In this document: in pieces, positions 21,320 through 60,632 of the stretch | How positions within the stretch are numbered: position 1 is the stretch's first letter | How the letters are laid out: each line of letters opens with the position of its first letter | Assembly: GCA_937884975.1 (NCBI GenBank) | Contig: CAKZZS010000023.1 | Location: 73,853 to 137,852 of the forward strand | Length of the DNA stretch: 64,000 nucleotides | Source: an uncultured Clostridia bacterium | GTDB lineage: Bacteria > Bacillota > Clostridia > Oscillospirales > Acutalibacteraceae | Direction of reading: 5' to 3' | The notes under the pieces: generated by a model | The model's database searches: none | What the model was told of the DNA's origin: nothing | The model's input: the letters and a program-made list of their open reading frames with translations, nothing else | Translations under genes and position numbers: made by a program

Positions 21320-24300
21320 ATGAAAAATTCAGGATTTAAAAAATTACTTTCAGTGATTATGTGCGTATTGCTCCTGACGGGAACAATGCCCTTTGTCGTT
21401 ATCGCTCTTGACGCGGTCAGTTACGTTGATGAAAACGGCGACACATATTCGGTAACTGACTATACAATTGTCGAGGCGGATGCTGACGGCAAAATTGCAC
21501 TTGCCGACGGCTGGAACGTTCTCAATTCAGACGTCAGCGCAACAGGGGAGGTATCTGTTCCGTCGGGTACGGCGAAGCTGATACTTTGCGACGGTTACAC
21601 TCTCACTGCAACGGGAGGTGTAACGGGCGCGCTCACGGTTTACGGTCAGGCTTTGGGTACGGGTACTCTTGATTCCGACAGCTCATCTGCAAGTACATAC
21701 GGAATATACGGAAACCCCATAACAATTAACAGCGGTACCGTAAAGGCTGTATCCGCCGTAAACTACTCTGCCATAGGCGGTACAGTTGTAATCAACGGCG
21801 GTAAAGTTACTGCAACGGGCGCGCAGAACGGCGCAGGCATCGGCGGTAAAGGCGGTACGGGCGGTATGAACTACGGCACAACCGCAAATGTCACCATAAA
21901 CGGCGGCGTTGTCAACGCAACGGGCGGAGACTGGAGCCCCGGTATAGGCAACGGCAACAGCACCTCAAGCAACAGCGGCTCTGTTGTAATAAACGGCGGT
22001 ACTGTTTCTGCCAGGGGCGGTCGTTACGGCGCAGGTATCGGTACAGCCCAGGAAGGCAGAGGTATGAACATCACCATTAACGGCGGCAGTGTTACTGCTT
22101 ACAGCGGACTGTACGGCGACGGTATAGGCAACGGCTGGATTGTTAACGCCAGCGAAATGGGCACGGTTGACATTAACGGCGGTACCGTTACGGCAACAGG
22201 CAGCCAGTGCGGCATTGCAGGAGCGGTTGTTTCGCTTAACTGGACAAACACAACCGATTCCGTCAAGGCTTCGGGCACTAATGCCGCTTATAAGGGCGCA
22301 ACCAGCTTTACAATTGAAAACGACTATGTTTTTGAGAATACAAAAACTCTTGTAACGACCGACAATATAAACAGCACTAAAATCTGCGCTTATCCCGGTC
22401 CTTTTGCGACGGTAAGCTTTGTTGACGATGACGGCGCAACGGCGCTTTACCCGTCTCAAAGGCTCGCTTTCGGCGGAATGGCAACAAGACCGACAGACCC
22501 CTCGGGAGTTGGCAAGGTATTTGACGGTTGGCAGCTTAACGGCTCAGACTTTGATTTCAGCACTGCCGTTACAAGCGATATTACGCTTGTCGCTCATTGG
22601 TCACCTGCGGCGGCTCTCACCTATATTGACGAAAACGGAGAATTGCAGTCAACAAGCAACTATATCACTCTTGCCGCAAGCACTCAGGCTCAAACGCTTA
22701 TAAGCGGCTGGTATGCGGTAACAAGCGATATTACAATATCGGAACGAATTACAGTAAGCGGCGACGTACACCTTATTCTTTGCGATAATTTTACTCTTAC
22801 CGCGCCTAAAGGCATTACCGTAAACAGCGGTAATTCCCTCTCGATTTACTCCCAGACAAATTCGGCAGGCGTGCTTCTTTGCAACAACGTTGCTTCGGGC
22901 AACGCAGGAATCGGCAGTAAGTCTAACAACAACTGCGGCACGGTTACTATTAACGGCGGCGCAATTACCGCAAAGGGCGGCGGATATTCGGCAGGTATCG
23001 GCGGCGGCCAGAACGGCAAGGCAGGAACAATAACCATTAACTCGGGCACGGTTACTGCTACGGGCTACGGCTCTGCAGGTATCGGCTGCGGCTACAATGC
23101 TTCGGGCGGTACAATTACAATTAACGAGGGCGTTGTTGTTGCAAACGGCGGCAGTAACTCGGCGGCTATCGGCGGCGCAGGTTCGTCTTCGCAACGTACA
23201 ATAATAAACATTAACGGCGGTGACATTACCGCTAACGCCTATACTTATACAAATTCAAGTACAAACGAAACCACCGTTTATTACGGTATCGGCGCAGGCG
23301 GCTCTGCAGGCTCGGCAACTATCAATCTCGGCTGGACGGACGACGCTGTCGACAGAATTACAGCAACAAATTATTACGGCACGGTTAATTTTATAGATAA
23401 CTTTGTTCTTGAAAACACAACCACGGTTGCAACTGTTGACAATATTGACGGCAAAACGATAATCCCTTATGACGGGAATGTTTATACGGTTGATTTTCTT
23501 GAGGAGACAGGCTCGACCTCACTTTATCCTCAGAGATTATATGTTGAATGGGATAAGGTCAGCGAGCCTAATAACCCCGTAAAGGACGGCTACAAGTTTG
23601 TTGAATGGCAGCTTGACGGCGTAAGATATGATTTTAATTCCGAGCTTAACTCCGACATTATTCTTCGCGCTCATTGGATGGAGGCTCCCGATATCGACTA
23701 TATCGACGAAAACGGCGAAACGCAGACCGTTCCCGGCGGCAGCTATTCGTTTATTGAATCAACTGACGAAGCTCTCACTATTACGGACGGCTGGTACGTC
23801 TTTATGGGCGACGTTACACTTTCAAAACGCGTTATCGTAAACGGCACGGTCAATATTATCCTTTGCGACGGATATACTGTCGGTATTTCCAAGGGTATTT
23901 CCGTCAGCGAGGGCAATACGCTTAATATTTACGGTCAGCAAAACAGTACAGGTCAGCTTCAATGCACAAGTCCGAATATGTATTGCGCAGGTATCGGCGG
24001 CGCAAACTATAGCACACTCGGTACAGTAACCGTTAACGGCGGCGTAATCAATGCCACGGGCGGTGCAAGAGCGGCAGGTATCGGCGGAGGAATGTACTGC
24101 GGAGGCGGCAATATTACCATAAACGGCGGTACAGTAAATGCAACTGCAGGCCTTTTTGCGGCGGCTATCGGCACCGGTTACAACTGTACGAACAGTTCAA
24201 GGAATACAAATATTGTCATCAACGGCGGTAATATTTCGGCGAACGCGTCTTACGGCTGCGCCATTGGCTCGGGCAATTCGTCTGTCTTCGACACAATAGT

Positions 24301-26794
24301 CATTAACGGCGGCACTATCGAAGCCAACGCCGGCACAGGCTATGCTGCTATTGGCGGCGACGCAAGGTCAACAGTTGATGTACCGATTACGATTAACGGC
24401 GGTACCGTTACGGCGACGGGCGGCAGCGATGCGGCGGCTGTCGGCGGTTCAAGCGGCAAGGATATGAAGGCTGTTGTTATTAACGGCGGCAACTTAACCG
24501 CAAACGCAGGCACAAACGGCACGGGTATCGGCGCTGCAACGGGTGTAACAAGTCCGACGGGTGCTGTTACTCTTAATTGGACAGCTGCTTCGGACAGCAT
24601 TTACGCTTCAAACTATAATGCGGCGTCAATAACGTTCGCAAAGGCTTTCAAGCTCAGCTCTACAGGCACATCGGCTTATGCCAACAGCTCGACGGATAAT
24701 AATATTGCAGATGCTATTATTATTCCGGATACGAACATCACGGTCAGATTTGTCGATTCGGATGGAATTACCGAATTGGCGCCCTCACAGACCATACCTA
24801 ATCAAGGTACCGCAACCAAGCCTGCGGTTACGGGAAGATACGGCTTTAATCTTCGTTGGCTGCTTAACGGAAGCGAGTTCGATTTTAACAGCGCTTTGCT
24901 TGGCGACACTACGCTTGTTGCTCAATGGGTAGCAGTCACTCCCGTAGATTATCTTGACGAAAACGGCGACGCTGCAACCTGCACGGCGTATTACGAACTG
25001 GAAAGCGATACGCTTAACCTCTCGGATGCGTGGTATGTAGTTTCCGGCATTATGTCCTTTAACGACAGACTTACCGCAACAGGTAATGTCAGCATTATTC
25101 TTAAGGACGGCGCGGTGTTAGGCGCTCTTAAGGGTATTACCGTAAACGAGGGCGCAACGCTCAATATTTACGTTCAGTCGGGCAGAAACGGTATAATCAA
25201 CATAACCGCACCTGATTCTGGTGATACAGGTATCGGCAGTACCTCGGGAAATAACGCAGGTACAATTATTATTAACGGAGGCGTACTTGCAGTCAGCGGC
25301 GGTGAAGACGCGCCTGCAATAGGCGGCGGCGAAAGCGGCACAGTCACAATTAACGGCGGCGAAATCACCGCAAACGGACTTGTCGGCGCCTCGGGTTCTG
25401 CGAATGAAAGCGGTTACACAATCAATCTTAACTGGCACAATTTAAGCGACAGCTACTATTCATACTATTTCAAGGGTAACATACATCTTCTCAACGATTT
25501 CTTCTATCAGGGAACGACTCAGCTTGTTACCGAAAACATCAGCTCAAACACAACTCTTATTCCCGCAACAAACTGTATTATTTATATTGATGAAGTATAC
25601 AATAAGCAGGCTTGCACGGATTACACGGTGCTTGAGGATTCAACTGCGGAATCTGTGAACTGCGCAAACGGCTGGTATGCCGTGACCGAGGATACAACCC
25701 TCACGGGCAGAATTAACGTAACGGGCACGGTAAATCTTATCCTTTGCGACGGCGCAACGCTTGATGTCAGCTACATCCGTCTTGCCACGACCGGCTCGGT
25801 TCTGAACATTTACTCTCAGGAGGGCAACACCGGAGCGATTAACGCCGTGGGACAGGTTGCCAATATGGCAGGTATCGGCGGCGGAAACGGTACAAACGGC
25901 ACGGTTAATATTTACGGCGGCGTTATAACCGCAAAGGGCGGCTCAAGTGCGGCAGGCATCGGCGGCGGAAACAACGGAAACGGCGGAACGGTTCATATTC
26001 AAAGAGCAACCGTTAACGCAACGGGCGGCGGAAGCGCGGCAGGCATTGGCGGCGGAATCTCTCATTGCGGCGGCAACATAACAATTAACAGCGGCGCTGT
26101 TACCGCAAAGGGCGGCGCATATGCGGCAGGCATAGGCAACGGCTATAACTGCGGCACCGCAACAAGCTTCCGTTTTGATATCACAATTAACGGCGGTACC
26201 GTAACTGCATCAGGCGGCTCGGGTACATTAACCAGCGGCTCAACTACGGTTTATATCGCAGGCGCAGGCATAGGCGGCGGCGGAAATTCAAGCAGCCGCG
26301 CAACAACAGGTACGGTTACAATTAACGGCGGTAATGTTACCGCAAACGGATGCAAACATGCTGAATCTCAACCGAAAACGGGACTCACAGTCGTAACCGA
26401 TTCGGCGGGTATCGGCTGCGGAACGGGCGGTACAACCTCTGCGACAAGACCTATTAACCTGTATCTCGGTTGGGATAAGGCTACCGACAGCGTTTATGCC
26501 TCGACCTATGATGTCTATAGCATAACCTTTAACGACGATTTCATCCTTCAGGGCACAACAACTCCTGCAACCGATTCAAATATCGACGGCAATACGATTG
26601 TTCCCGTAGTTTTCGATTACGATGTAAACGAGGACGGCTACTTTGATATAGTTGATGTTGCGTTTGTAATTAGCGCATCGGTCGGTGAAATTGAAATGAC
26701 CTCGACCCAGTCGGCGAAGGCGGACGTCAATAAGGATACCGTTGTCGATGCTTTCGACGCGGCGTTCCTTGACAGAAAGCTTATGCTCTACTAA
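21320..26794 (+). CDS. giant secreted modular protein: 5 repeated modules with glycine-rich INGG-type (beta-helix-like) repeats, 3 Listeria-Bacteroides-type repeat domains, and a C-terminal dockerin
   Basis: 1824 aa with a signal peptide. Recurring Y(V/I)DENG...GW(Y/N)...(L/I)ILCDG.T heads followed by I.INGG.VTA.GG..AAGIGGG repeats. (V/R)F(V/L)D..G...L.P...W.LNG..FDF......TLVA.W domains. Terminal DVNEDGYFDIVDV...DVNKDTVVDAFDAAFL. Confidence 0.85.
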   Translation: MKNSGFKKLLSVIMCVLLLTGTMPFVVIALDAVSYVDENGDTYSVTDYTIVEADADGKIALADGWNVLNSDVSATGEVSVPSGTAKLILCDGYTLTATGGVTGALTVYGQALGTGTLDSDSSSASTYGIYGNPITINSGTVKAVSAVNYSAIGGTVVINGGKVTATGAQNGAGIGGKGGTGGMNYGTTANVTINGGVVNATGGDWSPGIGNGNSTSSNSGSVVINGGTVSARGGRYGAGIGTAQEGRGMNITINGGSVTAYSGLYGDGIGNGWIVNASEMGTVDINGGTVTATGSQCGIAGAVVSLNWTNTTDSVKASGTNAAYKGATSFTIENDYVFENTKTLVTTDNINSTKICAYPGPFATVSFVDDDGATALYPSQRLAFGGMATRPTDPSGVGKVFDGWQLNGSDFDFSTAVTSDITLVAHWSPAAALTYIDENGELQSTSNYITLAASTQAQTLISGWYAVTSDITISERITVSGDVHLILCDNFTLTAPKGITVNSGNSLSIYSQTNSAGVLLCNNVASGNAGIGSKSNNNCGTVTINGGAITAKGGGYSAGIGGGQNGKAGTITINSGTVTATGYGSAGIGCGYNASGGTITINEGVVVANGGSNSAAIGGAGSSSQRTIININGGDITANAYTYTNSSTNETTVYYGIGAGGSAGSATINLGWTDDAVDRITATNYYGTVNFIDNFVLENTTTVATVDNIDGKTIIPYDGNVYTVDFLEETGSTSLYPQRLYVEWDKVSEPNNPVKDGYKFVEWQLDGVRYDFNSELNSDIILRAHWMEAPDIDYIDENGETQTVPGGSYSFIESTDEALTITDGWYVFMGDVTLSKRVIVNGTVNIILCDGYTVGISKGISVSEGNTLNIYGQQNSTGQLQCTSPNMYCAGIGGANYSTLGTVTVNGGVINATGGARAAGIGGGMYCGGGNITINGGTVNATAGLFAAAIGTGYNCTNSSRNTNIVINGGNISANASYGCAIGSGNSSVFDTIVINGGTIEANAGTGYAAIGGDARSTVDVPITINGGTVTATGGSDAAAVGGSSGKDMKAVVINGGNLTANAGTNGTGIGAATGVTSPTGAVTLNWTAASDSIYASNYNAASITFAKAFKLSSTGTSAYANSSTDNNIADAIIIPDTNITVRFVDSDGITELAPSQTIPNQGTATKPAVTGRYGFNLRWLLNGSEFDFNSALLGDTTLVAQWVAVTPVDYLDENGDAATCTAYYELESDTLNLSDAWYVVSGIMSFNDRLTATGNVSIILKDGAVLGALKGITVNEGATLNIYVQSGRNGIINITAPDSGDTGIGSTSGNNAGTIIINGGVLAVSGGEDAPAIGGGESGTVTINGGEITANGLVGASGSANESGYTINLNWHNLSDSYYSYYFKGNIHLLNDFFYQGTTQLVTENISSNTTLIPATNCIIYIDEVYNKQACTDYTVLEDSTAESVNCANGWYAVTEDTTLTGRINVTGTVNLILCDGATLDVSYIRLATTGSVLNIYSQEGNTGAINAVGQVANMAGIGGGNGTNGTVNIYGGVITAKGGSSAAGIGGGNNGNGGTVHIQRATVNATGGGSAAGIGGGISHCGGNITINSGAVTAKGGAYAAGIGNGYNCGTATSFRFDITINGGTVTASGGSGTLTSGSTTVYIAGAGIGGGGNSSSRATTGTVTINGGNVTANGCKHAESQPKTGLTVVTDSAGIGCGTGGTTSATRPINLYLGWDKATDSVYASTYDVYSITFNDDFILQGTTTPATDSNIDGNTIVPVVFDYDVNEDGYFDIVDVAFVISASVGEIEMTSTQSAKADVNKDTVVDAFDAAFLDRKLMLY
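21416..26605 (+). repeat. intragenic tandem module repeats (module starts approx. 21416, 22616, 23693, 24944, 25577)
   Basis: Each module opens with tat(g/a)ttgacgaaaacggc-like DNA encoding Y(V/I)DENG and contains many aacggcggt(acc)gtt (NGGTV) units. Confidence 0.8.
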
Positions 26795-42350: not shown

Positions 42351-42379
42351 TTGACCTTGTTTGAATGCGTTGGTATAAT
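42351..42379 (+). promoter_or_regulatory. near-consensus sigma-A promoter of the HTH-membrane gene
   Basis: TTGACC, 17 nt spacer, TGG-TATAAT (extended -10). RBS GGAGG and the ATG at 42399 follow. Confidence 0.6.
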
Positions 42380-42398
42380 GAAAACGGAGGCGAAACCA

Positions 42399-44078
42399 AT
42401 GGATAAATACAAATTCGGAAATAAGCTGACCGAGTACCGTACTCAAAAGGGACTCACCCAGGGTGAGCTTGGCGAAATACTCGGAGTTTCAAATAAAGCC
42501 GTTTCAAAATGGGAAAACGGTTCGGCAATGCCTCGCCTTGATATGATGAGCAAAATCACGGATTATTTCGGTGTGAGTATGGATGAGTTTCTTGATATTC
42601 CGTCAGACAAAAAGACAACAGATGAGGAATTGGAACAGAAATACCTGAAGCTGTATAATGAAAAGATGAAAAGGCGGAAGATACTGCGCGGATTACTGTT
42701 TATTGTTTTCCCGAGTATTCTGATAATAACTTTACTTATATACATTTTCGGTCCGGTAATTCTTGTGAAAATGAAATATAACTCAATGTCCGAATACGCA
42801 AAGATTAAACCTGAAAAGTTTGACAGTTATGATTTGGCTTTTGACTACACTACTTCATTTGGAAAAGTTGGAAATGTAACCTTTTCTCTTCCCGACGGAA
42901 CAGAACTTTTCAGGGATGTTTCAAATGTGGAAAAAAGCTATAAAAAGATTTCGGTAAACGGTGAAAATCTCAATGATGAAGAACATTTTGACGTTTATCA
43001 TGTTCTTTACAGTCCTGAAGGCGGAGGGCTTGAGCATTTTGATTATATTCTGAATTGGGAAGACGAATGGTTCAGTGAGAACTATGACGGAAAGCATTAC
43101 AGAATGGGTGACCTGAAATGGCTCGGTTATAATTATGACTGGAAGAATAATATAAAATGTTGCGATTGGAAAAAGGCTTTAATGTCATATAATCTTCTGA
43201 CATTGTGGGATGTTGCCGCACCGATTAGTGACAGGGTTATTGAATACAGCGGTTCAAATGCAAAAGGATTTATTACTGTATGGAATCACAACGGCGTAAC
43301 AACTTATAATGCTGACCTTTATAACGCTGAAGGTGAAAGCATTGGAATTGTATATACCGATGCAAATAAAAATGATACATCCGATTATAAAACGTTTTGT
43401 ATGACACTTAATTCCGTCGTTTTTACGGGAGAGGAAGTTCTTGACGAAGAACAACGCAGTTGGCGTGATGCTTACGATATGGTTGAAAGAGATTGGGACA
43501 GGTCAATGAGATGGAGAGATGACCTTCCGTATGTTACGCCTAACCCCGACCTTGAAATACTTAAGGCAGAGGAGGTTACAACTTACTCACTCAAAGAGGG
43601 AATGACGGAAAACGATATAATAAAAACTCTCGGCGAGCCGAAGGAAATCGAATTTGTGAGCGAAGACGGTTTTAATAAAAAGGTTTATGTGTACGACGGG
43701 GTGAAAATAACGTTTTTAAAGGAATACCTCGGCGAAGCGTATATGGATGAAATCTGGTCGGCTGAATTTACCGACAAGGATGCTCAATTCCCGAGGGATA
43801 TTAAAATCGGTGATTCGCTCGAGAGCATTCTTCTGAAATTGCCGCAGGAGAGGGATAAGGATTACCGCCTTGACGGAAAGGTCTACGGCGACGGAATGTA
43901 TAAGTTCACGGACGGCTTTGCTTATGTGGATGAACAGTTAAAGGACGGTGAGCCGCAGGAGGGCGAGTACCAGCTCAATGTCAGCTGCGGCTACTGGCCT
44001 GAAATAGATTTTATCCTCGATAAGGATCTTAATGTTGAGTCGGTGACAATATTTTATACGAGTAGTGGAATAGGATAA
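42399..44078 (+). CDS. XRE-type HTH protein fused to a single TM segment and a ~430-aa extracytoplasmic domain of unknown function
   Basis: HTH region LTEYRTQKGLTQGELGEILGVSNKAVSKWENGSAMPRLDMMSKITDYFGVSMDEFL. TM segment LRGLLFIVFPSILIITLLIYIFGPVILV. The remainder is unrecognised. Confidence 0.75.
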   Translation: MDKYKFGNKLTEYRTQKGLTQGELGEILGVSNKAVSKWENGSAMPRLDMMSKITDYFGVSMDEFLDIPSDKKTTDEELEQKYLKLYNEKMKRRKILRGLLFIVFPSILIITLLIYIFGPVILVKMKYNSMSEYAKIKPEKFDSYDLAFDYTTSFGKVGNVTFSLPDGTELFRDVSNVEKSYKKISVNGENLNDEEHFDVYHVLYSPEGGGLEHFDYILNWEDEWFSENYDGKHYRMGDLKWLGYNYDWKNNIKCCDWKKALMSYNLLTLWDVAAPISDRVIEYSGSNAKGFITVWNHNGVTTYNADLYNAEGESIGIVYTDANKNDTSDYKTFCMTLNSVVFTGEEVLDEEQRSWRDAYDMVERDWDRSMRWRDDLPYVTPNPDLEILKAEEVTTYSLKEGMTENDIIKTLGEPKEIEFVSEDGFNKKVYVYDGVKITFLKEYLGEAYMDEIWSAEFTDKDAQFPRDIKIGDSLESILLKLPQERDKDYRLDGKVYGDGMYKFTDGFAYVDEQLKDGEPQEGEYQLNVSCGYWPEIDFILDKDLNVESVTIFYTSSGIG

Positions 44079-44099
44079 AATAAAAAATTCATACTTTTT

Positions 44100-44141
44100 C
44101 GGACTTTGTTGCGGAAAACGCGCAACAAAGTCCGTTTTTTT
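44100..44141 (+). terminator. rho-independent terminator
   Basis: CGGACTTTGTTGCG-GAAAACG-CGCAACAAAGTCCG followed by TTTTTTT. Confidence 0.85.
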
Positions 44142-44192
44142 ATCTATGGGTGAAAGCGATATCAATCAGCAGGAAACTAATTGAAATGATTT

Positions 44193-44283
44193 GTAGGGGA
44201 CGGCCTCCCGGACGTCCCGTTGCCGTCGAGGACGGCAATTGCCCGTAAACGGGCAACAGGTTGTCAAGCATGCCAACCCCTAC
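44193..44283. repeat. REP-like GTAGGGG-hairpin element (locus B: inverted pair of units enclosing two extra hairpins)
   Basis: GTAGGGGACGGCCTCCCGGACGTCCCG at 44193-44219. Hairpins TTGCCGTC-GAG-GACGGCAA and TTGCCCG-TAAA-CGGGCAA. CAGGTTGTCAAGCATGCCAACCCCTAC at 44257-44283. Confidence 0.8.
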
Positions 44284-44319
44284 GGAGTAGTTCAAGGCTG
44301 AATGAATACGGGAGGAAAG

Positions 44320-44838
44320 ATGAATAAACAGTTTTCGTTAAATAACAGTGAGCCATCGTCTGCGTGCGAAAGGCTTACAAACAAGGAAAAGGAGTTTTGC
44401 CGTATCTATGCGGAAACAATGGACAAGCGCAGGGCGGCTTATGAGGCAGGCTACAGGCTTTTGCCCCTGAAGAGCGCATTAAAGCTTCTTGAAAAACGGA
44501 GGGTCAGGGATTTCCTTGATTCAATTGAGAACAGTCGTGAGAGCTTTTCGGGCGAGGTTGAAGCAGGCTTTCGCCGTCTTGCATTCGGCTCGACGGCAGA
44601 CGCGGTTAAGCTGCTTTTTGCTCAAAATCTTACGGATGAGCAAATTGAGTCGCTGGACCTTTTTAACGTGTCGGATATAAAAAAGCCGAAGGGCGGAGGA
44701 ATTGAGATAAAGTTTTTTGACCGTCAGAAGGCGCTTGAGGCTCTTAACGAGTTGAGCTCGAACAAGGGTGACGCGGCGCTGCCGTTTTATAAAGCGCTTG
44801 AAAAAGGCGCAAGGGAAAATGAAGAGGATGAGGACTGA
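44320..44838 (+). CDS. phage terminase small subunit
   Basis: LTNKEKEFCRIYAETMDKRRAAYEAGY is typical of the Terminase_2 family. GGAGG RBS precedes the ATG at 44320 (alternative ATG at 44302). Confidence 0.75.
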   Translation: MNKQFSLNNSEPSSACERLTNKEKEFCRIYAETMDKRRAAYEAGYRLLPLKSALKLLEKRRVRDFLDSIENSRESFSGEVEAGFRRLAFGSTADAVKLLFAQNLTDEQIESLDLFNVSDIKKPKGGGIEIKFFDRQKALEALNELSSNKGDAALPFYKALEKGARENEEDED

Positions 44839-46094
44839 TGGGCAACAGGAGGTTTGAATCCTTTTCAAAAAAGCAGATGACCGCCCTGACGTGGTGGTGC
44901 GAGAGCAGTAAATACCGCAGCCGCGACGCAATAATATGTGACGGCGCGGTAAGAAGCGGCAAGACGGTTTGCCTTTCAATTTCATTTATCTGTTGGGCAT
45001 TTTATTGCTTTAAGGATACTTCGTTCGCTTTCTGCGGCAAGACGGTGACTTCGCTTAAAAGAAATGTGATAGTTCCGCTTCTGCCCGTTCTTGAAGAAAT
45101 GGGCTTTAAATGCAGGGAGTTAAAATCGAAGAATCTTATTGAAATAAGTCTGGGAAAACAGTTTAACAGATTTTATCTTTTCGGCGGCAAAGATGAAGGC
45201 TCGGCGGCGCTTATTCAGGGTATGACGCTCGGCGGAGTGCTTTTTGACGAGGTCGCTTTGATGCCGCGTTCCTTTGTTGAGCAAGCTCTTGCGCGCTGTT
45301 CGGAGCAGGATGCAAAATTCTTTTTTAACTGTAACCCGGAAAATCCGCAGCACTGGTTTTACAGGGAATGGATTAAGAAAACCGAAGAGAAAAACGCGCT
45401 GTACCTTCATTTTGTAATGGAGGACAACCCGTCTCTTTCGCCCGAGGTTATTGCGCGTTACAAATCGCTTTACAGCGGAACGTTCTATGAGCGCTTCGTT
45501 GAGGGTAAATGGGTTGCCGCCGAAGGGTTGGTCTATCCGTTTTTCAGCGAAAAATATAACGTAGGCTTTCCCGAGGGCAGGTGTGACAAATTCTTCGTTT
45601 CCTGTGATTACGGTACGGTAAATCCTGCTTCCTTCGGGTTGTGGGGACGTTACGGAGACAAGTGGTTCAGACTCAGGGAATACTATCACGATTCAAGACA
45701 GAAGGGCTTTCAGAAAACGGATGAGGAATACTATTCCGATTTAAAGAAGCTTATCGGAAACGAAAAAATCGACTCTGTGATAGTTGACCCGTCAGCCGCC
45801 TCGTTTATGGAGTGTATAAGACGTCACGGCGAATACAGGGTAGTCCCTGCAAAAAACGATGTCGATGACGGAATACGCAAGGTGTCGACTCTTTTAAAGG
45901 AAAGAAAACTGGTGTTCTCACCCGAATGTAAGGATTCCTTAAGGGAATTTTCGCTTTACAGATGGGACAGCACATATATAAAAGACAAACCCGTAAAAGA
46001 GAACGATCACGCAATGGACGATATACGCTATTTTGTTTCTACTGCTGTCGGTGAGCAGGAAAGCGGATTCTTTGCGCTGTCGGTGGAAAGATAA
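44838..46094 (+). CDS. phage terminase large subunit (PBSX-like family)
   Basis: Walker A GAVRSGKT, Walker B VLFDEV, NCNPENPQHWFY, and a C-terminal nuclease region with DHAMDDIRY. The TGATG start overlaps the TerS stop. Confidence 0.85.
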   Translation: MGNRRFESFSKKQMTALTWWCESSKYRSRDAIICDGAVRSGKTVCLSISFICWAFYCFKDTSFAFCGKTVTSLKRNVIVPLLPVLEEMGFKCRELKSKNLIEISLGKQFNRFYLFGGKDEGSAALIQGMTLGGVLFDEVALMPRSFVEQALARCSEQDAKFFFNCNPENPQHWFYREWIKKTEEKNALYLHFVMEDNPSLSPEVIARYKSLYSGTFYERFVEGKWVAAEGLVYPFFSEKYNVGFPEGRCDKFFVSCDYGTVNPASFGLWGRYGDKWFRLREYYHDSRQKGFQKTDEEYYSDLKKLIGNEKIDSVIVDPSAASFMECIRRHGEYRVVPAKNDVDDGIRKVSTLLKERKLVFSPECKDSLREFSLYRWDSTYIKDKPVKENDHAMDDIRYFVSTAVGEQESGFFALSVER

Positions 46095-46148
46095 ACCGCC
46101 GACAAATAGGTTCGTATGAACTTATTTTAATTTCTGAAAGGAGTGTTT

Positions 46149-47303
46149 ATGAAAAATAACCTTTTTTCACGCTCGAAAAAGGGCAAAAGCTTTGTCGCGG
46201 CGCAGACCGGACCCGTAGCTGATGACCCGTTTTCGGCTTTGGAGAGCTTCATTCCTCCGGCAATTGAGGAGGCGGCTCTCTACGGCGCGCTCAAAAACAG
46301 CGTTCCGATTATTTCCGCCGCTATTACAAAGCTGGTACATCTGGCAGGCGGCTTTAAAATGAAATGTTCAAAGGAGAATTATCAGCCGGTTCTTGACAGG
46401 TTTGTTGAAACTGTTGACGTTAACTCGACGGGCAACGGACTTGACAGGTTTATGGCGGTATTCTTCGAGTGCCTTTTGACCTACGGAACGGCGGTGGGCG
46501 AAGTGGTGCTGGACGAAAACGGTAAAGTAATTCAACTTTACAATACGCCGATTAAGAATATAAAATTACGCAGAAACCCCGTAAATCCAATAAAAGTGGA
46601 GCTTTGCAGGTTTAACGGCATTGATGCCGTACCTGTAAAGTATCCTGACTTTACGGTTGTATCGACGCTCAATCCCGAATCAGGCGCGGTTTACGGCAAT
46701 TCTCTTCTTAAGGGTTTGCCGTTTGTGACCTCGGTTCTTATGAAAATCTACAACTCCATAGGTCAGAATTGGGTAAGAGCAGGCGCTCTGCGTTACGCGG
46801 TTACATATAAGCCGCAAAACGATACGCTTGAAAGAAGTCTTGCAAAGGACAGGGCAATGCAGATAGCTGCGGAATGGAGCAATGCAATGAATTCATCGGG
46901 TACGAAGGATTTTATTGCAGTCGGTGATGTTGATATAAAGGTCATCGGCGCAGACAGCCAGATTCTTGACAGCGAGGTGCCGGTAAGACAGATGCTTGAG
47001 CAGATAGTTTCAAAAACCGGTTTGCCGCCATTTATGCTCGGTCTTTCCTGGTCGTCAACGGAAAGAATGTCCGCCCAGCAGGCGGACGCGCTGACAAGCG
47101 AGCTGTGGGCGTACAGAAGAATCCTTACTCCCGTTGCGGAAAAAATTTGCAATTTGTATCTCGCTCTTTCGGGGTTGGACGCAACTGCAAAAATCGAGTG
47201 GGACGATATCACGCTTCAGGATGAAACGGAGCAGGCGCACGCAAGGCTCTGGAACGCGCAGGCAAGACAGCTTGAAATTCAGTCGGGAGGTGTTGAGGAT
47301 TAA
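46149..47303 (+). CDS. phage portal protein
   Basis: About 385 aa directly after TerL, with an AAGGAG RBS. The size, position and C-terminal ...ERMSAQQADALTSELWAYRRIL resemble HK97-type portals. Confidence 0.7.
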   Translation: MKNNLFSRSKKGKSFVAAQTGPVADDPFSALESFIPPAIEEAALYGALKNSVPIISAAITKLVHLAGGFKMKCSKENYQPVLDRFVETVDVNSTGNGLDRFMAVFFECLLTYGTAVGEVVLDENGKVIQLYNTPIKNIKLRRNPVNPIKVELCRFNGIDAVPVKYPDFTVVSTLNPESGAVYGNSLLKGLPFVTSVLMKIYNSIGQNWVRAGALRYAVTYKPQNDTLERSLAKDRAMQIAAEWSNAMNSSGTKDFIAVGDVDIKVIGADSQILDSEVPVRQMLEQIVSKTGLPPFMLGLSWSSTERMSAQQADALTSELWAYRRILTPVAEKICNLYLALSGLDATAKIEWDDITLQDETEQAHARLWNAQARQLEIQSGGVED

Positions 47304-47355
47304 CAAGTCAATAACAGCAAAAACAAAAAACGTCAGAAAAGTGACTGACGCGGAT

Positions 47356-48270
47356 ATGGAGAAAATCAATTCCTACACGCTGTCTTCTCTTTCGGCAGAC
47401 GATGTGTTTGTGTTCAGCGTTGTGCTCTGCGACAATGAAATTGACCGTGACGGCGAACGCTTTACGGTTGAGTCATTAAAAACGCTTGAAAAGCTCTTTG
47501 TCGGCAAAACCGCAATAATGAACCACAGTATGAAAGCCGAGGACCAGACCGCAAGAACCTTTAAGACGGAGCTTATAACCGACGGGCGGAAAAATTCGCT
47601 CGGGGAGGATTATTACTACCTTAAGGCTTGGGCATATATGGTCAGGACCGATTCAAACGCCGATTTGATTAAAGAAATCGAGGCAGGAATTAAAAAGGAG
47701 ACGAGCGTAGGCTGCTCGGTAAGCGAAATCAGGTGTTCTATTTGCAAAAACGACAGACGAAAAAAGCGCTGCTCCCACGTTAAGGGAAATGAATATGACG
47801 GTAAAATCTGCTTTGACGAGCTTATAAACCCGACTGACGCGTATGAGTGGTCCTTTGTTGCCGTCCCTGCGCAGAAAAATGCAGGCGTGACAAAGGGACT
47901 TAAAATAAAGGAGGAGAGAAATACGCTCGAAATTTTAAAAAATATTGAAAAAAGTGAGGAAATCACGCTTTCAAAAACGGAATGCGAAAAGCTTTTTGAA
48001 GAGGTAAACGAGCTTAAGAAAAAGGCTCTGGACGGTGAAAAGTACCGTAACTTTCTTATTAAAAACGCCGTTTCTCTGGCGGCTGTGGCTTTTCCCGAAA
48101 TCGGAGCGGAAGAAATGGGAGAAATCTGTAAATCCCTTTCGGTGGAAAACCTTAAGGCATTCACTTTCGCTCTTGAAAAGAAAAAAAGCGGCTTAATGCC
48201 GTGCGGCTACCAGACAGGCGAGCCGACAGAAGCTAACAGGGATGAAAGCAATTCGTCCTTTGTAATATAA
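47356..48270 (+). CDS. prohead serine protease (HK97/S78-like) with coiled-coil scaffold-like C-terminal half
   Basis: NEIDRDGERFTVESLKTLEKLFVGKTAIMNHS and KKETSVGCSV resemble the His and Ser regions of S78 proteases. The C-terminus is K/E-rich. The start is uncertain (in-frame GTG 47290, GTG 47341 and ATG 47356 are all possible). Confidence 0.6.
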   Translation: MEKINSYTLSSLSADDVFVFSVVLCDNEIDRDGERFTVESLKTLEKLFVGKTAIMNHSMKAEDQTARTFKTELITDGRKNSLGEDYYYLKAWAYMVRTDSNADLIKEIEAGIKKETSVGCSVSEIRCSICKNDRRKKRCSHVKGNEYDGKICFDELINPTDAYEWSFVAVPAQKNAGVTKGLKIKEERNTLEILKNIEKSEEITLSKTECEKLFEEVNELKKKALDGEKYRNFLIKNAVSLAAVAFPEIGAEEMGEICKSLSVENLKAFTFALEKKKSGLMPCGYQTGEPTEANRDESNSSFVI

Positions 48271-48282
48271 CAGGAGGTATTT

Positions 48283-49284
48283 ATGTCAGACTATAAAAGC
48301 ATTAAAATTGATAAGGGTTTGTACGCGGGAAAGGGCTTTTCCTATAACCTTGAGCAGCTCGATCCGAGCGAGAATTACAAGGGCACTTCCCTTGAGGGAC
48401 TTGACGCATTTGCGCGCCAGCTCAAAAGATTCGATATCAAGGTCAGCGGCAATAACAGTGATGTTATTGACAAGTTCTTCTCTTCTTCTCAGACTGCTGC
48501 TCTGTTCCCCGAATTTGTTGTAAGAACGGTTGAAAGCGGCATTGACGGCGCGGAAACTCTTTCCGAAATCAGCGCGGTTAAGACAAGAATTGAGGGACTC
48601 GATTACAGAAGCATTATTTCCACTCTTACCGACCCGACAAGCAGTCACTTTGTTTCCGAGGGCGAGGAAATTCCCGAGGTGAACATTGCGCTTTCCAACG
48701 ATCTTGTTACAATGCGCAAGTACGGAAGAATGCTTTCCGCAAGCTATGAGGCGCTTCGTTTCCAGAAAATCAACGTGTTTGCCATCGCTCTCAGACAGAT
48801 AGGAAAGCATATTGCAAATGCGCAGGTTGAGGACGCGCTGGGCGTGCTTTATCTCGGCAATTCGGGTAACGAGCACTGCGGCTCGGACAACACGGGCGGC
48901 GCGCTTACATACGCCGACCTTGTTGATTTTTACACAAGCTTCGGCGATTACTCAATGAGTCACATCTTTATTAACCCCGAATCACTTTCTGTTCTTCTTA
49001 ATATGCAGGAGTTCAGGGATGCGGCAGCCGGCCTTAATTTCCACGCTACGGGAAATCTTATTACTCCCTTCGGCGCAAAGATAATCAGAACAAATTATGT
49101 TCCCAAAAACAGCCTTCTTGCAATTGACAGGAACTACGCTCTTGAAACGGTACAGTCGGGCGACGTAACGGTTGAAAGCGACAAGCTTATTAACCGTCAG
49201 CTTGAAAGAGTTGCCGTCACAAGCACCTGCGGCTTTAACAGAATTACCGCGGACGCAGTAAAGGCATTGACCTTCAGCGAATAA
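48283..49284 (+). CDS. phage major capsid protein (HK97-fold expected)
   Basis: 333 aa with an AGGAGG RBS, directly after the protease/scaffold gene. Called from position and size; no diagnostic motif was recognised. Confidence 0.65.
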   Translation: MSDYKSIKIDKGLYAGKGFSYNLEQLDPSENYKGTSLEGLDAFARQLKRFDIKVSGNNSDVIDKFFSSSQTAALFPEFVVRTVESGIDGAETLSEISAVKTRIEGLDYRSIISTLTDPTSSHFVSEGEEIPEVNIALSNDLVTMRKYGRMLSASYEALRFQKINVFAIALRQIGKHIANAQVEDALGVLYLGNSGNEHCGSDNTGGALTYADLVDFYTSFGDYSMSHIFINPESLSVLLNMQEFRDAAAGLNFHATGNLITPFGAKIIRTNYVPKNSLLAIDRNYALETVQSGDVTVESDKLINRQLERVAVTSTCGFNRITADAVKALTFSE

Positions 49285-49296
49285 CGAGGTGAAAAA

Positions 49297-49686
49297 ATGA
49301 TAGACGTTTCACCGGTAATTGCGCGTTTTTTACTCCTTTGCGACAGACAGCAGTCCGATGAAAAAATCCAGTCCCTGTGTCAGTCAAGCGCACAAAAAAT
49401 AAGCAGTCTTATCAAAGAGGATGCCGATGAAAGCGATGACCGCCTTATAAACGCCGCCGCGTGCGACGCGTTTTATCAGTGGATTCTTTTGAACAGGGCG
49501 GTTGACTCGGACGCGCTTAAAAGCTTTCGCGCAGGCGATATTACCGTGGAAAATGACGCAGACGCAGTTACTTCGGCTGCCTATAATCTTAAAAAAGAGG
49601 CGTTTGAAGCGCTTGACGGTTTAATTCGGGATAAAGGCTTTTATTTTTCAGAGGTGGATATAAATGACGCTGAAATCTCTTTTTGA
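49297..49686 (+). CDS. phage head-tail connector/adaptor-sized protein (hypothetical)
   Basis: 129 aa with a GAGGTG RBS. Called from its position after the MCP. Confidence 0.45.
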   Translation: MIDVSPVIARFLLLCDRQQSDEKIQSLCQSSAQKISSLIKEDADESDDRLINAAACDAFYQWILLNRAVDSDALKSFRAGDITVENDADAVTSAAYNLKKEAFEALDGLIRDKGFYFSEVDINDAEISF

Positions 49687-50008
49687 AAAATACGGGAGAA
49701 GAATAAGGGTTGTTTCAGCCGACGAAAGCTGGCAGGGCGAACAGTTCAGGGCATTTGTTCAGCCGCTTCGGTATAAAAACAAGATGTACCTTGAGGATAA
49801 AAGAGTTCCGCTCGGAATAGGCGATATGAGTTACTATCTTTACCTCGGCCCTGCCGAGCACGACCTGACGGCGCTTGCGCGTGACGAATATATGTTAAAG
49901 GCCGATAACGAAAGCTTTTTTGTTACAAGAGCGGAAAAGCTTTTTTATTCCGACTCCGTGGCTTATATCTGGGCGGTTTTAAAACGCACAAAGGAAGAGG
50001 AGGCGTAA
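49664..50008 (+). CDS. phage head-closure-sized protein (hypothetical)
   Basis: 114 aa with an AGAGGTGG RBS. Overlaps the upstream gene by 23 nt. Confidence 0.45.
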   Translation: MTLKSLFEKYGRRIRVVSADESWQGEQFRAFVQPLRYKNKMYLEDKRVPLGIGDMSYYLYLGPAEHDLTALARDEYMLKADNESFFVTRAEKLFYSDSVAYIWAVLKRTKEEEA

Positions 50009-50013
50009 GAGTA

Positions 50014-50460
50014 ATGGTAGTTGTCGGCAATACAATTGAGACGTTTGTAAATACCGCAAACGGGCTTGAATCCATAGTCGGCGGAAAAACGGTTGTAGCT
50101 TTTCCGGACAAATACTTTTCAACTCCGCTTAAGGAGACGATGTTTTCTCTTGGAATTAAGAAAATTGAAGTCGGTCCGAGACTTGAGACGACTGACGCCA
50201 ACGGAAATGTGACCGTTACAAGAAACAGGGAAGCCAAAATCAGACTCGCGCTTAATGTGTACGCGCCGAAGTCTATGGGCGGAGACGCGTGCTCAAAGGG
50301 GTTTGACAGATGGCTCGACCTTCTTGTAAGAGTGTGGAGAATTGATATTCTTGACGCAGGCTGTGATGAGGTTGAATATGAGCAGTCCATAGGTACAAAC
50401 GTACTCAAGGGTTATTTCACAATACGCAGAGTTGTTTCGGAAACGATTCCTGTTTCATAA
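50014..50460 (+). CDS. phage structural protein, hypothetical (last gene of the module)
   Basis: 148 aa with a GGAGGCG RBS. Followed directly by a strong terminator. Confidence 0.45.
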   Translation: MVVVGNTIETFVNTANGLESIVGGKTVVAFPDKYFSTPLKETMFSLGIKKIEVGPRLETTDANGNVTVTRNREAKIRLALNVYAPKSMGGDACSKGFDRWLDLLVRVWRIDILDAGCDEVEYEQSIGTNVLKGYFTIRRVVSETIPVS

Positions 50461-50471
50461 AAAAAGATAAT

Positions 50472-50520
50472 AAAAAAGGCGGCGCGGTAAACAGGTTTTT
50501 ACCGCGCCGTTTGCTTATTT
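50472..50520. terminator. bidirectional terminator separating the phage-like module from the convergent c-di-GMP gene
   Basis: A-run, GGCGCGGTAAA-CAGGTT-TTTACCGCGCC, then T-rich tail. Confidence 0.8.
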
Positions 50521-59059: not shown

Positions 59060-59608
59060 ATGGGATTTTTTGATAAGCTTTTTAAAAAGAAGAATAAAAA
59101 AGAGGATGTGGAAATAAACCGTGTCTATGCAGGACCCGAAAGGAAGGATGAAGCTTCGAGGCGTCCTGCAGGAATCGAATGCGTTTACGCATCTCCGGAA
59201 ATTATGGGAAGAAAAACGGGAATGCCTTATAAAAACGGTTCTTTGGAGAATGAAAATATGAATGACGCGCGCCCGACGCCTGTAAGTGAGGATGATTTTC
59301 CGCCTTATGCCGAGGCCACGACAGTTTACGCTTCTCCCGAAATGATGAAAAGTAATTATGACTCGTTTAATAAGGATAATTATCCGTTTAACTATGCGGC
59401 GGAAAATGACCCGGATAACAGCGTTATGAACGAAGTGTACGCAGGTCCCGTTGAGGATATTGAGGGCGATCCTTTTATGAAAACCGTCTATGACGGACCG
59501 GTTATTCCCGAAAAAAATGAAACGTGCCGATTTTGTCCCTTCTGTACAGCGCCGATACCGCTTGACGCACCGTTCTGTCCCATTTGCGGCGCAAAGCTTA
59601 AAATTTGA
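59060..59608 (+). CDS. VYAGP-repeat protein with C-terminal zinc ribbon
   Basis: 182 aa. Five spaced motifs (RVYAGPE, CVYASPE, TVYASPE, EVYAGPV, TVYDGPV). C-terminal CRFCPFCTAPIPLDAPFCPICGAKL. RBS ACGGAGTG. Confidence 0.7.
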   Translation: MGFFDKLFKKKNKKEDVEINRVYAGPERKDEASRRPAGIECVYASPEIMGRKTGMPYKNGSLENENMNDARPTPVSEDDFPPYAEATTVYASPEMMKSNYDSFNKDNYPFNYAAENDPDNSVMNEVYAGPVEDIEGDPFMKTVYDGPVIPEKNETCRFCPFCTAPIPLDAPFCPICGAKLKI

Positions 59609-59610
59609 GT

Positions 59611-60632
59611 ATGGAAAGAAGCGTTAAATATAACCTGCTCTCATGCGTGTGGGAAATCACTCTTTCGTGCTGTTTTTCCTGCAGATATTGCGGCTCAAAG
59701 GCAGGAAAGGCGAGGGATAACGAGCTTTCGACAGACGAAGCCTTAAACGTTGCAGGGCAGCTTGCCGATATCGGTTGCAGACGGGTTTCTCTTATCGGCG
59801 GAGAGGTCTTTATGAGAAGCGACTGGGCAAAAATTGTTAAGGCGCTTACCGACAGAGGCGTTAAGGTGTCGGTTATCACAAACGGTTTTATGTTTTCCGA
59901 GCGGCTTATTTCCTCTCTTAAAGAATTAAAAATTGAGTCGGTTGCCATTTCGCTTGACGGACCCGAGGAAATCCACGATTTATTTAGACAGCGCGGAAGC
60001 TTTAAAAGAGCAGAACAGGCGATGGATGTTCTTATAGAAAACGAAATTCCCGTTTCCGTAATAACCACGCTTCACAGCAGGAATGTGTCAAAGCTTGAGG
60101 AAATGTATTCGTTTTTAAAGCATAAGGATATTTTCGCCTGGCAGATACAGGCGTGCTCGCCTATGGGGAACGCGGCAAGCGGTGAGTTTTCAACCGAAAT
60201 TGATTTTTCTTCGGTTATCCGCTTTGTTGAAAAGCATATAGGCAAGGCTCCGTTTGCAATTGGAATTGCTGACAATATCGGCTATTATACCCGGTCCGAG
60301 GGCTATTTAAGGGGAAACTTAAGCGGCAAAGCCTGTTTTAACGCTGCCGCGCAGGGCTTACGGGCATTGGGATAGACAGCGTTGGAAATGTCAGAGGGTG
60401 CGAATCGATGTATGACGACTCGTTTATCGAGGGTAATCTTCGTGAAAAAAGCCTTGAAGAAATATGGAATAATCCCCACGCCTTTTCGTATAACAGGGAC
60501 TTTAATGAGGATATGTTAAGCGGAAAATGCAGACAGTGCGAGTATAAAAAAAGATGCGCAGGCGGCTGCAGGTCATATAATTTCTTTACCCACAAAAAGC
60601 TCTATGAATCACTGCGTTGCGCAGGGAAATAA
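59611..60632 (+). pseudogene. radical SAM/SPASM-domain enzyme, split by a single-base frameshift near 60342-60375
   Basis: N-terminal part has CCFSCRYC (CX3CX2C) and a TIM-barrel-like region. The track splits it into 59605..60375 and 60408..60632. The -1 frame continues ...AGLTGIGIDSVGNVRGCESMYDDSFIEGNLREKSLEEIW...CRQCEYKKRCAGGCR (SPASM Cys motifs). Confidence 0.75.

Follow-up and report, generated by a model that had tools for sequence, protein, structure and literature searches.

A candidate domesticated, head-only relative of PBSX in the chromosome of an uncultured Oscillospirales bacterium

Domesticated phage elements related to PBSX or to the gene transfer agents (GTAs) are a known theme, and capsids without tails are likewise familiar from the phage-inducible chromosomal islands that form capsids (cf-PICIs) and from FpGTA, the GTA of Faecalibacterium prausnitzii. 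The subject of this report is a 6.2-kb operon of eight open reading frames (ORFs) at positions 44302-50460 of a 64-kb stretch of DNA from an uncultured Clostridia bacterium of the Acutalibacteraceae (GenBank assembly GCA_937884975.1, contig CAKZZS010000023.1). This whole stretch, referred to as the window, and about 10 kb beyond its right end make up the source-genome DNA that was covered. The original prediction, made from the letters of the window, described the operon as a tail-less phage head and packaging module and left it between a capsid-forming satellite and a GTA-like or domesticated capsid system. The latter fits best, and the best-supported view of the locus is that it descends from a PBSX/Mu-type defective myovirus element and belongs to a very large family in the Oscillospirales.

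FpGTA is the sole GTA-like element that has been described from gut Firmicutes. FpGTA (Borodovich et al. 2026) forms capsids of about 40 nm without visible tails that hold about 8.5 kb of host DNA (PMC12946183). Its first operon, FpGTA I, is 10.5 kb long with 10 ORFs that include short-tail parts, and a second operon about 125 kb away encodes baseplate, fibre and lysis genes (PMC12946183). Several per cent of the capsid-packaged DNA in the gut is bacterial, and GTA-like packaging of host DNA fragments of 4.6-8.9 kb is prominent in the Ruminococcaceae and Oscillospiraceae, with reports from Gemmiger, R. callidus (4.6 kb), CAG-115 and Onthomonas (PMC12946183). FpGTA homologues were not found in Gemmiger and Subdoligranulum, and loci for GTA-like packaging outside Faecalibacterium were not identified in that work (PMC12946183).

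The cf-PICIs encode their own capsid protein, protease, portal, adaptor, connector and terminase and carry no tail or lysis genes, and their tail-less capsids can dock onto foreign tails. They are mobile, self-packaging islands of 10-18 kb with an integrase, a regulation module (alpA or a repressor), a replication module and an HNH gene. The RcGTA-type GTAs of the Alphaproteobacteria are domesticated head-packaging clusters without replication or integration genes, vertically inherited across an order, under purifying selection and controlled in trans. PBSX (genes xtmA to xkd) is a chromosomally fixed, non-replicative defective prophage of Bacillus subtilis.

In the window, the eight genes stand at the coordinates first given for them, all in one orientation and none interrupted:

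44320..44838, + strand: small terminase subunit TerS (PF03592, 1.4e-10; phrog_51); the ORF opens at 44302
44838..46094, + strand: large terminase subunit TerL, PBSX family (TIGR01547; Terminase_6N/6C; phrog_2)
46149..47303, + strand: portal protein (phrog_30703, 1.7e-118; weak PF04860 match; ribosome-binding site)
47290..48270, + strand: predicted prohead protease of XkdF/S78 type; helical, scaffold-like domain at the C-terminus (phrog_16951, 3.5e-94; AlphaFold2 model; BFVD)
48283..49284, + strand: major capsid protein, HK97 type (PF25209, 5.7e-15; phrog_3922, 9e-81)
49297..49686, + strand: s1, predicted head-tail adaptor (phrog_541 matches in family members)
49664..50008, + strand: s2, probable head-closure protein (weak phrog_161 and SPP1 gp16 matches; position between the adaptor and the terminator protein)
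50014..50460, + strand: s3, predicted tail-terminator/collar fold (AlphaFold2 model compared with the Protein Data Bank (PDB) by Foldseek)

TerS, TerL, the portal and the capsid protein, which the original prediction listed already (the last as a major-capsid-sized protein), are matched directly by sequence profiles. The match of TerL to the NCBIfam "PBSX family" model TIGR01547 reaches 191.7 bits at a cutoff of 105 and that to phrog_2 an E-value of 6e-45; its Walker A motif reads GAVRSGKT. The capsid protein scores under the cutoffs for TIGR01554 and N4-gp56. Translation of TerS most likely starts at 44320 (MNKQFS, ribosome-binding site GGGAGGAAAG), a start common to the closest relative, locus L005, and the ENA gene call. 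The portal gene most likely starts at 46149, with an alternative GTG at 46143, and the protease gene at 47290 or 47356.

The fourth gene and the three small genes found no match in the Pfam scan. For the fourth, 118 homologues out of at least 7999 clusters at 90% identity in a collection of 5.8 billion proteins were aligned, and an AlphaFold2 model was built on them. The model (predicted local distance difference test score, pLDDT, of 82) has a beta-rich N-terminal domain followed by long helices that make up the C-terminal third. Against the PDB its top match was the Epstein-Barr virus (EBV) protease, at a non-significant E-value of 0.05, and the fold was therefore identified through the predicted viral structures of BFVD. 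These gave 110 matches at E <= 1e-3, led by a "prohead serine protease" (8e-19) and including "PBSX protein XkdF" and "capsid maturation protease". Because of these matches and the helical C-terminal third, the product of the fourth gene is predicted, in line with the original proposal, to be a prohead protease of XkdF/S78 type that carries a scaffold-like tail.

The three small proteins yielded no matches when the window sequences were scanned directly against Pfam and PHROG, and a scan of 133 family members gave weak adaptor and head-closure matches only. Thirteen of the 56 members of the s1 family match phrog_541, "head-tail adaptor" (best 1.6e-4), although the window protein itself has no direct match to it; family membership thus identifies s1 as a predicted adaptor. 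One member of the s2 family matches phrog_161, "head closure Hc1", and the alignment of s2 to SPP1 gp16 by hhalign has a probability of 23%, over an AFxQPL motif; s2 is probably a head-closure protein. This was the best of the comparisons of the s1, s2 and s3 profiles with SPP1 gp15, gp16 and gp17, none of which was significant, and the s1, s2, s3 and protease family profiles found nothing meaningful among PDB sequences. The AlphaFold2 model of s3, based on 116 homologues (pLDDT 82.5, predicted template modelling score 0.74), matched tail-terminator, collar and gateway proteins in the PDB with a Foldseek probability of 1.0, among them PhiTE connector chain F (8.6e-6), the pyocin R2 collar, lambda gpU, T4 gp15, the diffocin collar and the SaPI1 neck. 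The model thus gives s3 a tail-terminator/collar fold. Adaptor, head-closure or neck identities had been expected for 49297-50460, and profile and structure comparison bore out the adaptor and the tail-terminator fold, while support for head closure is weak.

The module thus has the genes for a full head, for the packaging motor and for a complete neck, in which even the protein that would normally cap a tail is present. In keeping with the original prediction, no tail, lysis, integrase, recombinase, excisionase or replication genes are present among the annotated ORFs of the window, of which a few small ones were left unscanned. There is no HNH ORF within 44.3-50.5 kb, and no holin, endolysin or sigma factor gene adjoins the module. 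Most relatives have an extra gene of about 111 codons, family F8, between the protease and capsid genes (L003 10493-10828, L052 9629-9970 and 45 further loci). It is missing from the window and L005, and its product may be a decoration or accessory head protein.

Relatives of the capsid protein were found in at least 587 species-representative genomes, all of Oscillospirales type, with hosts in the Acutalibacteraceae, Ruminococcaceae, Oscillospiraceae, Ca. Fimenecus and Flavonifractor/Pseudoflavonifractor. Architecture was surveyed by means of gene calls from a custom script, protein clustering and tblastn in the window and the 80 best loci. Seventy loci could be judged, and they fall into three types:

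Type I, 15/70 loci: head, sheath, tube and Mu/PBSX-type baseplate
Type II, 12/70 loci: head and baseplate, tube present or not, no sheath
Type III, 43/70 loci: head only

The gene order of the tailed relatives mirrors that of PBSX from xtmA through xkdU: TerS, TerL, portal, protease, capsid, three neck genes, sheath, tube, LysM protein, hub, gp46-like, Baseplate_J and gp48-like. L002, for instance, has the neck genes followed by the sheath, the tube and a LysM/baseplate gene. The type I baseplate consists of a LysM+DNA_circ_N protein, a gp44-like hub, a gp46-like protein, Baseplate_J and a gp48-like protein. In the type II loci (L017, L018, L027, L033, L035, L051, L055, L065, L070, L075, L080 and L081), neither a sheath gene nor a recognisable tape measure was found, while the Mu-like baseplate is kept and the tube sometimes so. 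Type II has a cultured representative in the isolate Ruminococcus sp. LCP21S3_E8. No tail genes occur within +/-10 kb of the 43 head-only loci, and there are no lysis genes in cis in any relative examined. The head-only type is represented, for instance, by L001 (MT835508.1, 46.7 kb), which has the same tail-less eight-gene module in another chromosomal setting, with a MarR gene and two ABC transporter genes on one side and genes for an oleate hydratase, a TetR regulator and MgtC on the other.

The tailed relatives are compact clusters of about 13 kb. IMG/VR holds at least 526 further contigs of the family, many of them 12.3-13.9 kb long and running exactly from TerS to the last tail gene of the type I element. 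In the few tailed cases examined, host genes flank the TerS side. Among these relatives, no complete phage genome that combines a lysogeny with a replication module was found, the tailed ones not having been screened systematically for such genes.

The last gene of the head-only module provides a record of how the tail was lost. In 26 loci it encodes 270-305 amino acids, compared with the usual 145 or so. Hidden Markov models show that the first ~140 residues of the long form are the s3 domain, and the last ~115 are equivalent to residues ~38-153 of E. This gene closes the type II tail module and lies 3' of the gp48-like gene. The s3 and E parts are joined in frame because everything from the tube to the start of E has been deleted. 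Examples of the fusion are L056 11723-12565, L039 11718-12563 and L014 7909-8754, with 23 further loci. At the mfd site, some species have the fused form and others the s3 domain alone. The window s3, which has 148 residues and no E, is therefore plausibly one step beyond the fusion. Gene comparison thus indicates that the element lost its whole tail module by deletion. The E-derived domain is only 39-47% identical where the s3 domain is 76-85% identical, so that it evolves much faster, and its ratio of nonsynonymous to synonymous substitution rates (dN/dS) of 0.1-0.4 shows that it is still constrained. It may be a receptor-binding domain attached straight to the neck.

The remaining head genes are under purifying selection, as judged from substitution rates. 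L005, a locus in the metagenome-assembled genome (MAG) SIG554 (SVOB01), is 86% identical to the window in TerL, 88% in the portal and 73% in the capsid protein. Between the two, dN/dS is 0.14 for TerS, 0.09 for TerL, 0.11 for the portal, 0.08 for the protease, 0.19 for the capsid protein, 0.33 for s1 and 0.20 for s3; dS is saturated for s2 and generally high (0.7-2.0). The host genes on the flanks have similar values (GGDEF-EAL 0.10, XRE 0.15). Eight further head-only pairs, including some with a dS of just 0.1-0.3, gave 0.02-0.25 for nearly all genes and 0.26-0.43 for a few small or little-diverged ones, and the tailed pair L019-L023 gave 0.19-0.45. The Walker A, Walker B and coupling motifs and the three nuclease aspartate motifs of TerL are invariant in 37/37 head-only loci, and across dozens of lineages at species level none of the eight ORFs is broken. 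That the module is maintained and is not debris had been argued from its intact ORFs, and the selection data agree.

The element also sits at fixed chromosomal sites. L005 shares the interval between glgB and the GGDEF-EAL gene with the window, module included: upstream, both have glgB, a small helix-turn-helix (HTH) gene, a DUF2975 gene and a gene for a 575-residue XRE protein, and downstream GGDEF-EAL, rubrerythrin and the genes that follow. The glycogen operon adjoins the element in several more distant loci, including the tailed L047, where it lies next to glgB. Elsewhere in the family, the upstream host neighbours that recur across species are ABC-ABC-MarR, mgtE, mfd, a gerA-type gene, GH31 with a small ORF and an MscS-type channel gene, and the downstream ones are the CotJ, TrmB, HAD and thiamine pyrophosphokinase genes; flanks were identified by Pfam for L001 and by reading the sequences for the others. 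In a neighbour-joining tree built from TerL, portal and capsid, type I is basal, type II intermediate and type III derived; the loci group by chromosomal site, and type II loci are nested among the head-only ones at the mgtE site. Since the same sites are occupied across species, the element is taken to be vertically inherited and not mobile. The original prediction had reckoned with a full prophage at this site of which the block would be an eroding remnant: distant relatives are indeed tailed, one of them at glgB, but erosion of the window block is not seen.

Upstream of TerS, the following leader features were found:

44100..44134, + strand: terminator-like hairpin with a 14-bp stem and a T-run (T7); invariant core GTTGC...GCAAC
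44145..44155, + strand: conserved TATGGGTGAAA motif 3' of the hairpin; bipartite pattern in relatives
44160..44300, + strand: structured, GC-rich leader insertion of ~125 nt, seen in the alignment with L005, which has none

In 11 type II and type III loci, which differ in chromosomal context, the same hairpin stands upstream of TerS. Its core, GTTGC-N9-12-GCAAC, is invariant, and covariation is seen in the outer stem, where 24 cells differ on both sides and shuffles give 9.2; none of 500 shuffles scored as high, and slid controls were far lower. The core pattern occurs in 10 of 55 upstream regions, where about 0.4 would be expected (~25x the background rate), and a terminator-like hairpin in 17 of 55, compared with about 1 in shuffles. 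About 20 nt after the T-run follows the motif (T/C)AT(G/T)(G/A)GTGA. The combination of hairpin and motif was found on the + strand in eight loci and on the - strand never (window 44100-44155; L005 5942-6007; L017 5637-5703; L051 5629-5695; L027 5570-5635; L064 5978-6044; L066 5994-6059; L075 5711-5776). Rfam has no family at threshold in the whole window and nothing credible in the leader.

The hairpin cannot be the terminator of the upstream gene, since in some loci that gene is divergent. We infer that it is a terminator or attenuator of the operon itself, which would therefore need a factor supplied in trans, and the bipartite element could be the target of an antiterminator or regulator. 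The GC-rich insertion separates the leader motif from the ribosome-binding site of TerS. The fold z-score of 44085-44325 is -6.35, a stretch that also takes in the terminator hairpin. The insertion was considered as a repeat element and dismissed as it is present in a single copy in the window. A different motif, GAAC(A/T)TTT...GTAAACA / TGTGAACA, lies 100-250 nt 5' of TerS in L013, L008, L012, L014, L035, L037, L030, L036 and L039. It was considered as a LexA (Cheo) box and rejected: its sequence departs from GAAC-N4-GTTC, and the window has no copy of it.

Compared with PBSX, then, the element has a TerL of the same family, a protease that resembles XkdF by predicted fold without a Pfam match, and the same chromosomally fixed, non-replicative character. 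It differs in having no contractile tail module, which its type I relatives do have, and in having no lysis cassette and no Xre/Xpf pair in cis; the XRE protein next to it in the window is of a different, membrane-anchored type. A long tape measure is lacking even in the tailed relatives, which have a protein of only ~180 residues at that position, and the host is one of the Clostridia (Oscillospirales), not Bacillus.

The likeness to FpGTA lies in the same bacterial order and habitat, in a TerS-TerL-portal-capsid operon of phage origin that has neither replication nor integration genes, and in wide distribution, FpGTA being conserved in its genus. However, the FpGTA capsid protein (RCH50849.1) is named as a member of the N4-gp56 family and goes with a Prp-type protease, whereas the window has the predicted XkdF/S78 enzyme. 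Because the window capsid scores 18.6 bits on the N4-gp56 profile TIGR04387, which has a cutoff of 60, it is assigned to another lineage, and family profile and FpGTA annotation together set the window element apart as distinct. Its module is also smaller than FpGTA I (6.2 kb and 8 ORFs) and myovirus-derived. With RcGTA it has in common the domesticated head-packaging cluster, order-wide vertical inheritance, purifying selection and the lack of replication and integration genes, but RcGTA keeps a siphovirus-type tail in the same cluster, and its capsid and terminase lineages are unrelated to those of the window. The tail-less capsids of FpGTA have been observed, and random packaging and gene transfer have been demonstrated for RcGTA.

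What marks a GTA in a genome is found here: a cluster of structural and packaging genes that has none for replication, integration or lysogeny, is inherited vertically and stands under purifying selection. That the locus is a domesticated, selected, head-only derivative of PBSX is highly probable, and there is about an even chance that it functions by making GTA-like tail-less capsids. The complete statement, that it is a domesticated, PBSX-derived head-only element that makes tail-less, DNA-filled, GTA-like capsids, is given a probability of roughly 0.55.

On this reading, the operon would be silent until a factor supplied in trans overcame the terminator-like hairpin in the leader. The XkdF-type protease-scaffold and the capsid protein would build proheads on the portal, TerS and TerL would fill these with DNA, and the adaptor, the head-closure protein and the terminator-fold protein would seal the portal vertex. 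The resulting tail-less, DNA-filled capsids of GTA type would be freed at cell lysis. Delivery would make use of tails or other functions from elsewhere, that is, from another locus, from a co-resident phage or through the uptake machinery of a competent recipient.

Several points weigh against this reading. The element is known here only as a set of genes, and lysis genes in cis are missing from the window and from every relative examined. The Terminase_2 domain of TerS is a standard one, whereas the TerS proteins of RcGTA and FpGTA are described as being without a DNA-binding domain; packaging may therefore be sequence-specific here instead of random. The stepwise loss, first of the sheath, then of the baseplate and then of the last tail gene, could represent slow decay in which heads are kept for a reason other than transfer. 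In addition, the neighbour-joining tree has no bootstrap support, and dS is near saturation in several of the comparisons.

The best of the competing explanations, though an unlikely one, is that the locus encodes part of a complete particle, with tail, baseplate and lysis genes elsewhere in the genome and tailed particles as the product, as in FpGTA I and II or the multilocus RcGTA. FpGTA sets the precedent with its distant second operon of baseplate, fibre and lysis genes; the fold predicted for s3 is one that normally meets a tail tube, and s3 is under selection; and a GH25 muramidase gene lies ~6 kb past the end of the window. However, the s3-E fusion indicates that the tail genes were deleted in place and not moved elsewhere, and neither the 64-kb window nor the +/-10 kb around each of the 43 head-only loci holds a tail gene. 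The muramidase gene (L168 16193-16954) stands among housekeeping genes, and its product could be an autolysin relevant to particle release or be unrelated.

It is quite improbable that the operon serves as an anti-phage decoy. In such a system, the late activator or antiterminator of an infecting phage would read through the leader, and the host-encoded capsids and terminase would then compete for the DNA and tails of the phage, leading to a smaller phage burst with packaged host DNA as a by-product. The promoter-proximal terminator hairpin with its conserved core, and the lack of a cognate regulator conserved in cis, resemble phage late-operon control; the connector and terminator proteins, which have tail-docking surfaces, are retained; and cf-PICIs and PICIs interfere with their helpers in this way. 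Yet the idea is pure inference: no known defence gene adjoins the module, the PADLOC library not having been scanned, and no complete phage with a closely related head or neck was found in the 50,697 phage records (five unverified scaffolds matched) or among the top 80 IMG/VR contigs.

The satellite half of the original prediction is not borne out, and it is very improbable that the element is a helper-induced mobile island like a cf-PICI that packages its own DNA in its own capsids and pirates the tails of a helper. The cf-PICI packaging set (capsid, protease, portal, adaptor, connector, TerS and TerL) is all there except for HNH, tail and lysis genes are absent, and TerS has a normal domain of DNA-binding type; by analogy, the window element could make tail-less capsids as a cf-PICI does. 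However, the window ORFs that were scanned include no integrase or recombinase, no replication module, no regulation module of the cf-PICI kind and no HNH gene, and the module has 6.2 kb instead of 10-18 kb. The site and flanks are the same in L005 even though the capsid proteins are only 73% identical, host contexts recur across many species, and the phylogeny groups by chromosomal site. Without excision and replication, there would also be no preferential self-packaging.

A functionless prophage remnant awaiting decay, to which the stepwise loss of tail genes in the family and the lack of regulatory, lysis and tail genes in cis would point, can be set aside as extremely improbable because dN/dS is low (0.02-0.33, equal to or below the host neighbours and below the tailed L019-L023 pair) and the terminase catalytic residues are invariant, and because the eight ORFs are uninterrupted across dozens of lineages at species level.

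Being separate from FpGTA and known from at least 587 genomes at species level, the family offers a candidate locus for GTA-like packaging in other taxa. This bears on an open question of the gut virome, namely that GTA-like packaging is most prominent in the Ruminococcaceae and Oscillospiraceae while the genes are known just for Faecalibacterium (PMC12946183). A broader proposal can be made tentatively and is doubtful as it stands: the head-only operon would be a functional, order-wide tail-less capsid system and the source of the GTA-like short-fragment packaging outside Faecalibacterium, gated at its leader by a host or phage factor in trans. Its sole distal structure would be a neck capped by the terminator-fold protein, which in many species is fused to the fast-evolving E domain, possibly a receptor-binding one.

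The family also forms a natural series of tail loss, from a full contractile tail through sheath-less forms and head-only forms with a fusion scar to head-only forms, with the head genes under selection throughout. Such a series lets one ask what a tail-less capsid is selected for, be it the transfer of genes, the pirating of tails by an element that is itself not mobile, or defence.

Loci of the head-operon family are filed as phages or as uncultivated viral genomes (UViGs) in INPHARED and IMG/VR, which calls for some caution with these databases. When the capsid protein was compared with the 50,697 phage records by tblastn, five matches were obtained, all of them unverified scaffolds of one human faecal virome. 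These INPHARED "Bacteriophage sp." entries (L001 and four others) and the IMG/VR UViGs L087-L166 are bacterial chromosomal scaffolds or 12-14-kb domesticated elements of the family. The five GenBank phage records could represent capsid-packaged host DNA or plain contamination. The "capsid-forming satellite-like MGE" (mobile genetic element) of Pelethomonas (bioRxiv 2026.07.08.737213) was considered as a possible relative and rejected, since its description (a capsid protein, a conjugal transfer protein and a tRNA-adjacent position) does not match the family.

The module is bounded by two further features:

42351..44078, + strand: membrane-anchored XRE-family regulator, 575 residues (HTH_3); the ORF probably starts at Met codon 10
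50477-50512 on the + strand and 50509-50480 on the - strand: bidirectional intrinsic terminator closing the operon, with a 15-pair stem (+), a 12-pair stem (-) and a T-run after each

The XRE protein combines an N-terminal HTH with a single transmembrane segment (residues ~112-140) and, at the C-terminal end, a domain of ~430 residues that has no known family; it looks like a membrane-anchored one-component regulator. Its tie to the module is uncertain. It was considered as the repressor of the element and rejected, and it is not counted as part of it, because it is kept beside the module only in L005, is separated from the operon by a terminator and is membrane-anchored. The strong bidirectional terminator at the other end, which had been pointed out before, is indeed there and adjoins the convergent gene for a c-di-GMP-related PAS-GGDEF-EAL protein.

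Otherwise the window consists of housekeeping DNA from a Ruminococcus-like organism of cellulosome type. Its genes include a purine biosynthesis operon, two subtilases with leucine-rich repeats, GAPDH, a sortase, the glycogen operon glgA/D/C/B, rubrerythrin, desulfoferrodoxin, a tRNA methyltransferase, CorA and MTHFR, and the module lies between the glycogen operon on one side and the GGDEF-EAL gene on the other. The 10 kb past the window end encode MetH and glycyl-tRNA synthetase, among others.

At 59605-60600 of the window (L168 6804-7825), a radical SAM domain (254 residues) and a SPASM domain (74 residues) are encoded by separate, adjacent ORFs beside a zinc-ribbon protein, and the pair may be a frameshifted peptide-maturase gene. 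This is the region that the original prediction had called a decaying islet, and it is not phage-like. At 21320-26794, the window encodes a secreted protein of 1824 residues with glycine-rich repeats of beta-helix type, beta-rich modules that recur and, at the C-terminus, a duplicated calcium-binding motif like that of dockerins, and the GC content there, 0.48-0.52, is above that of the rest of the window.

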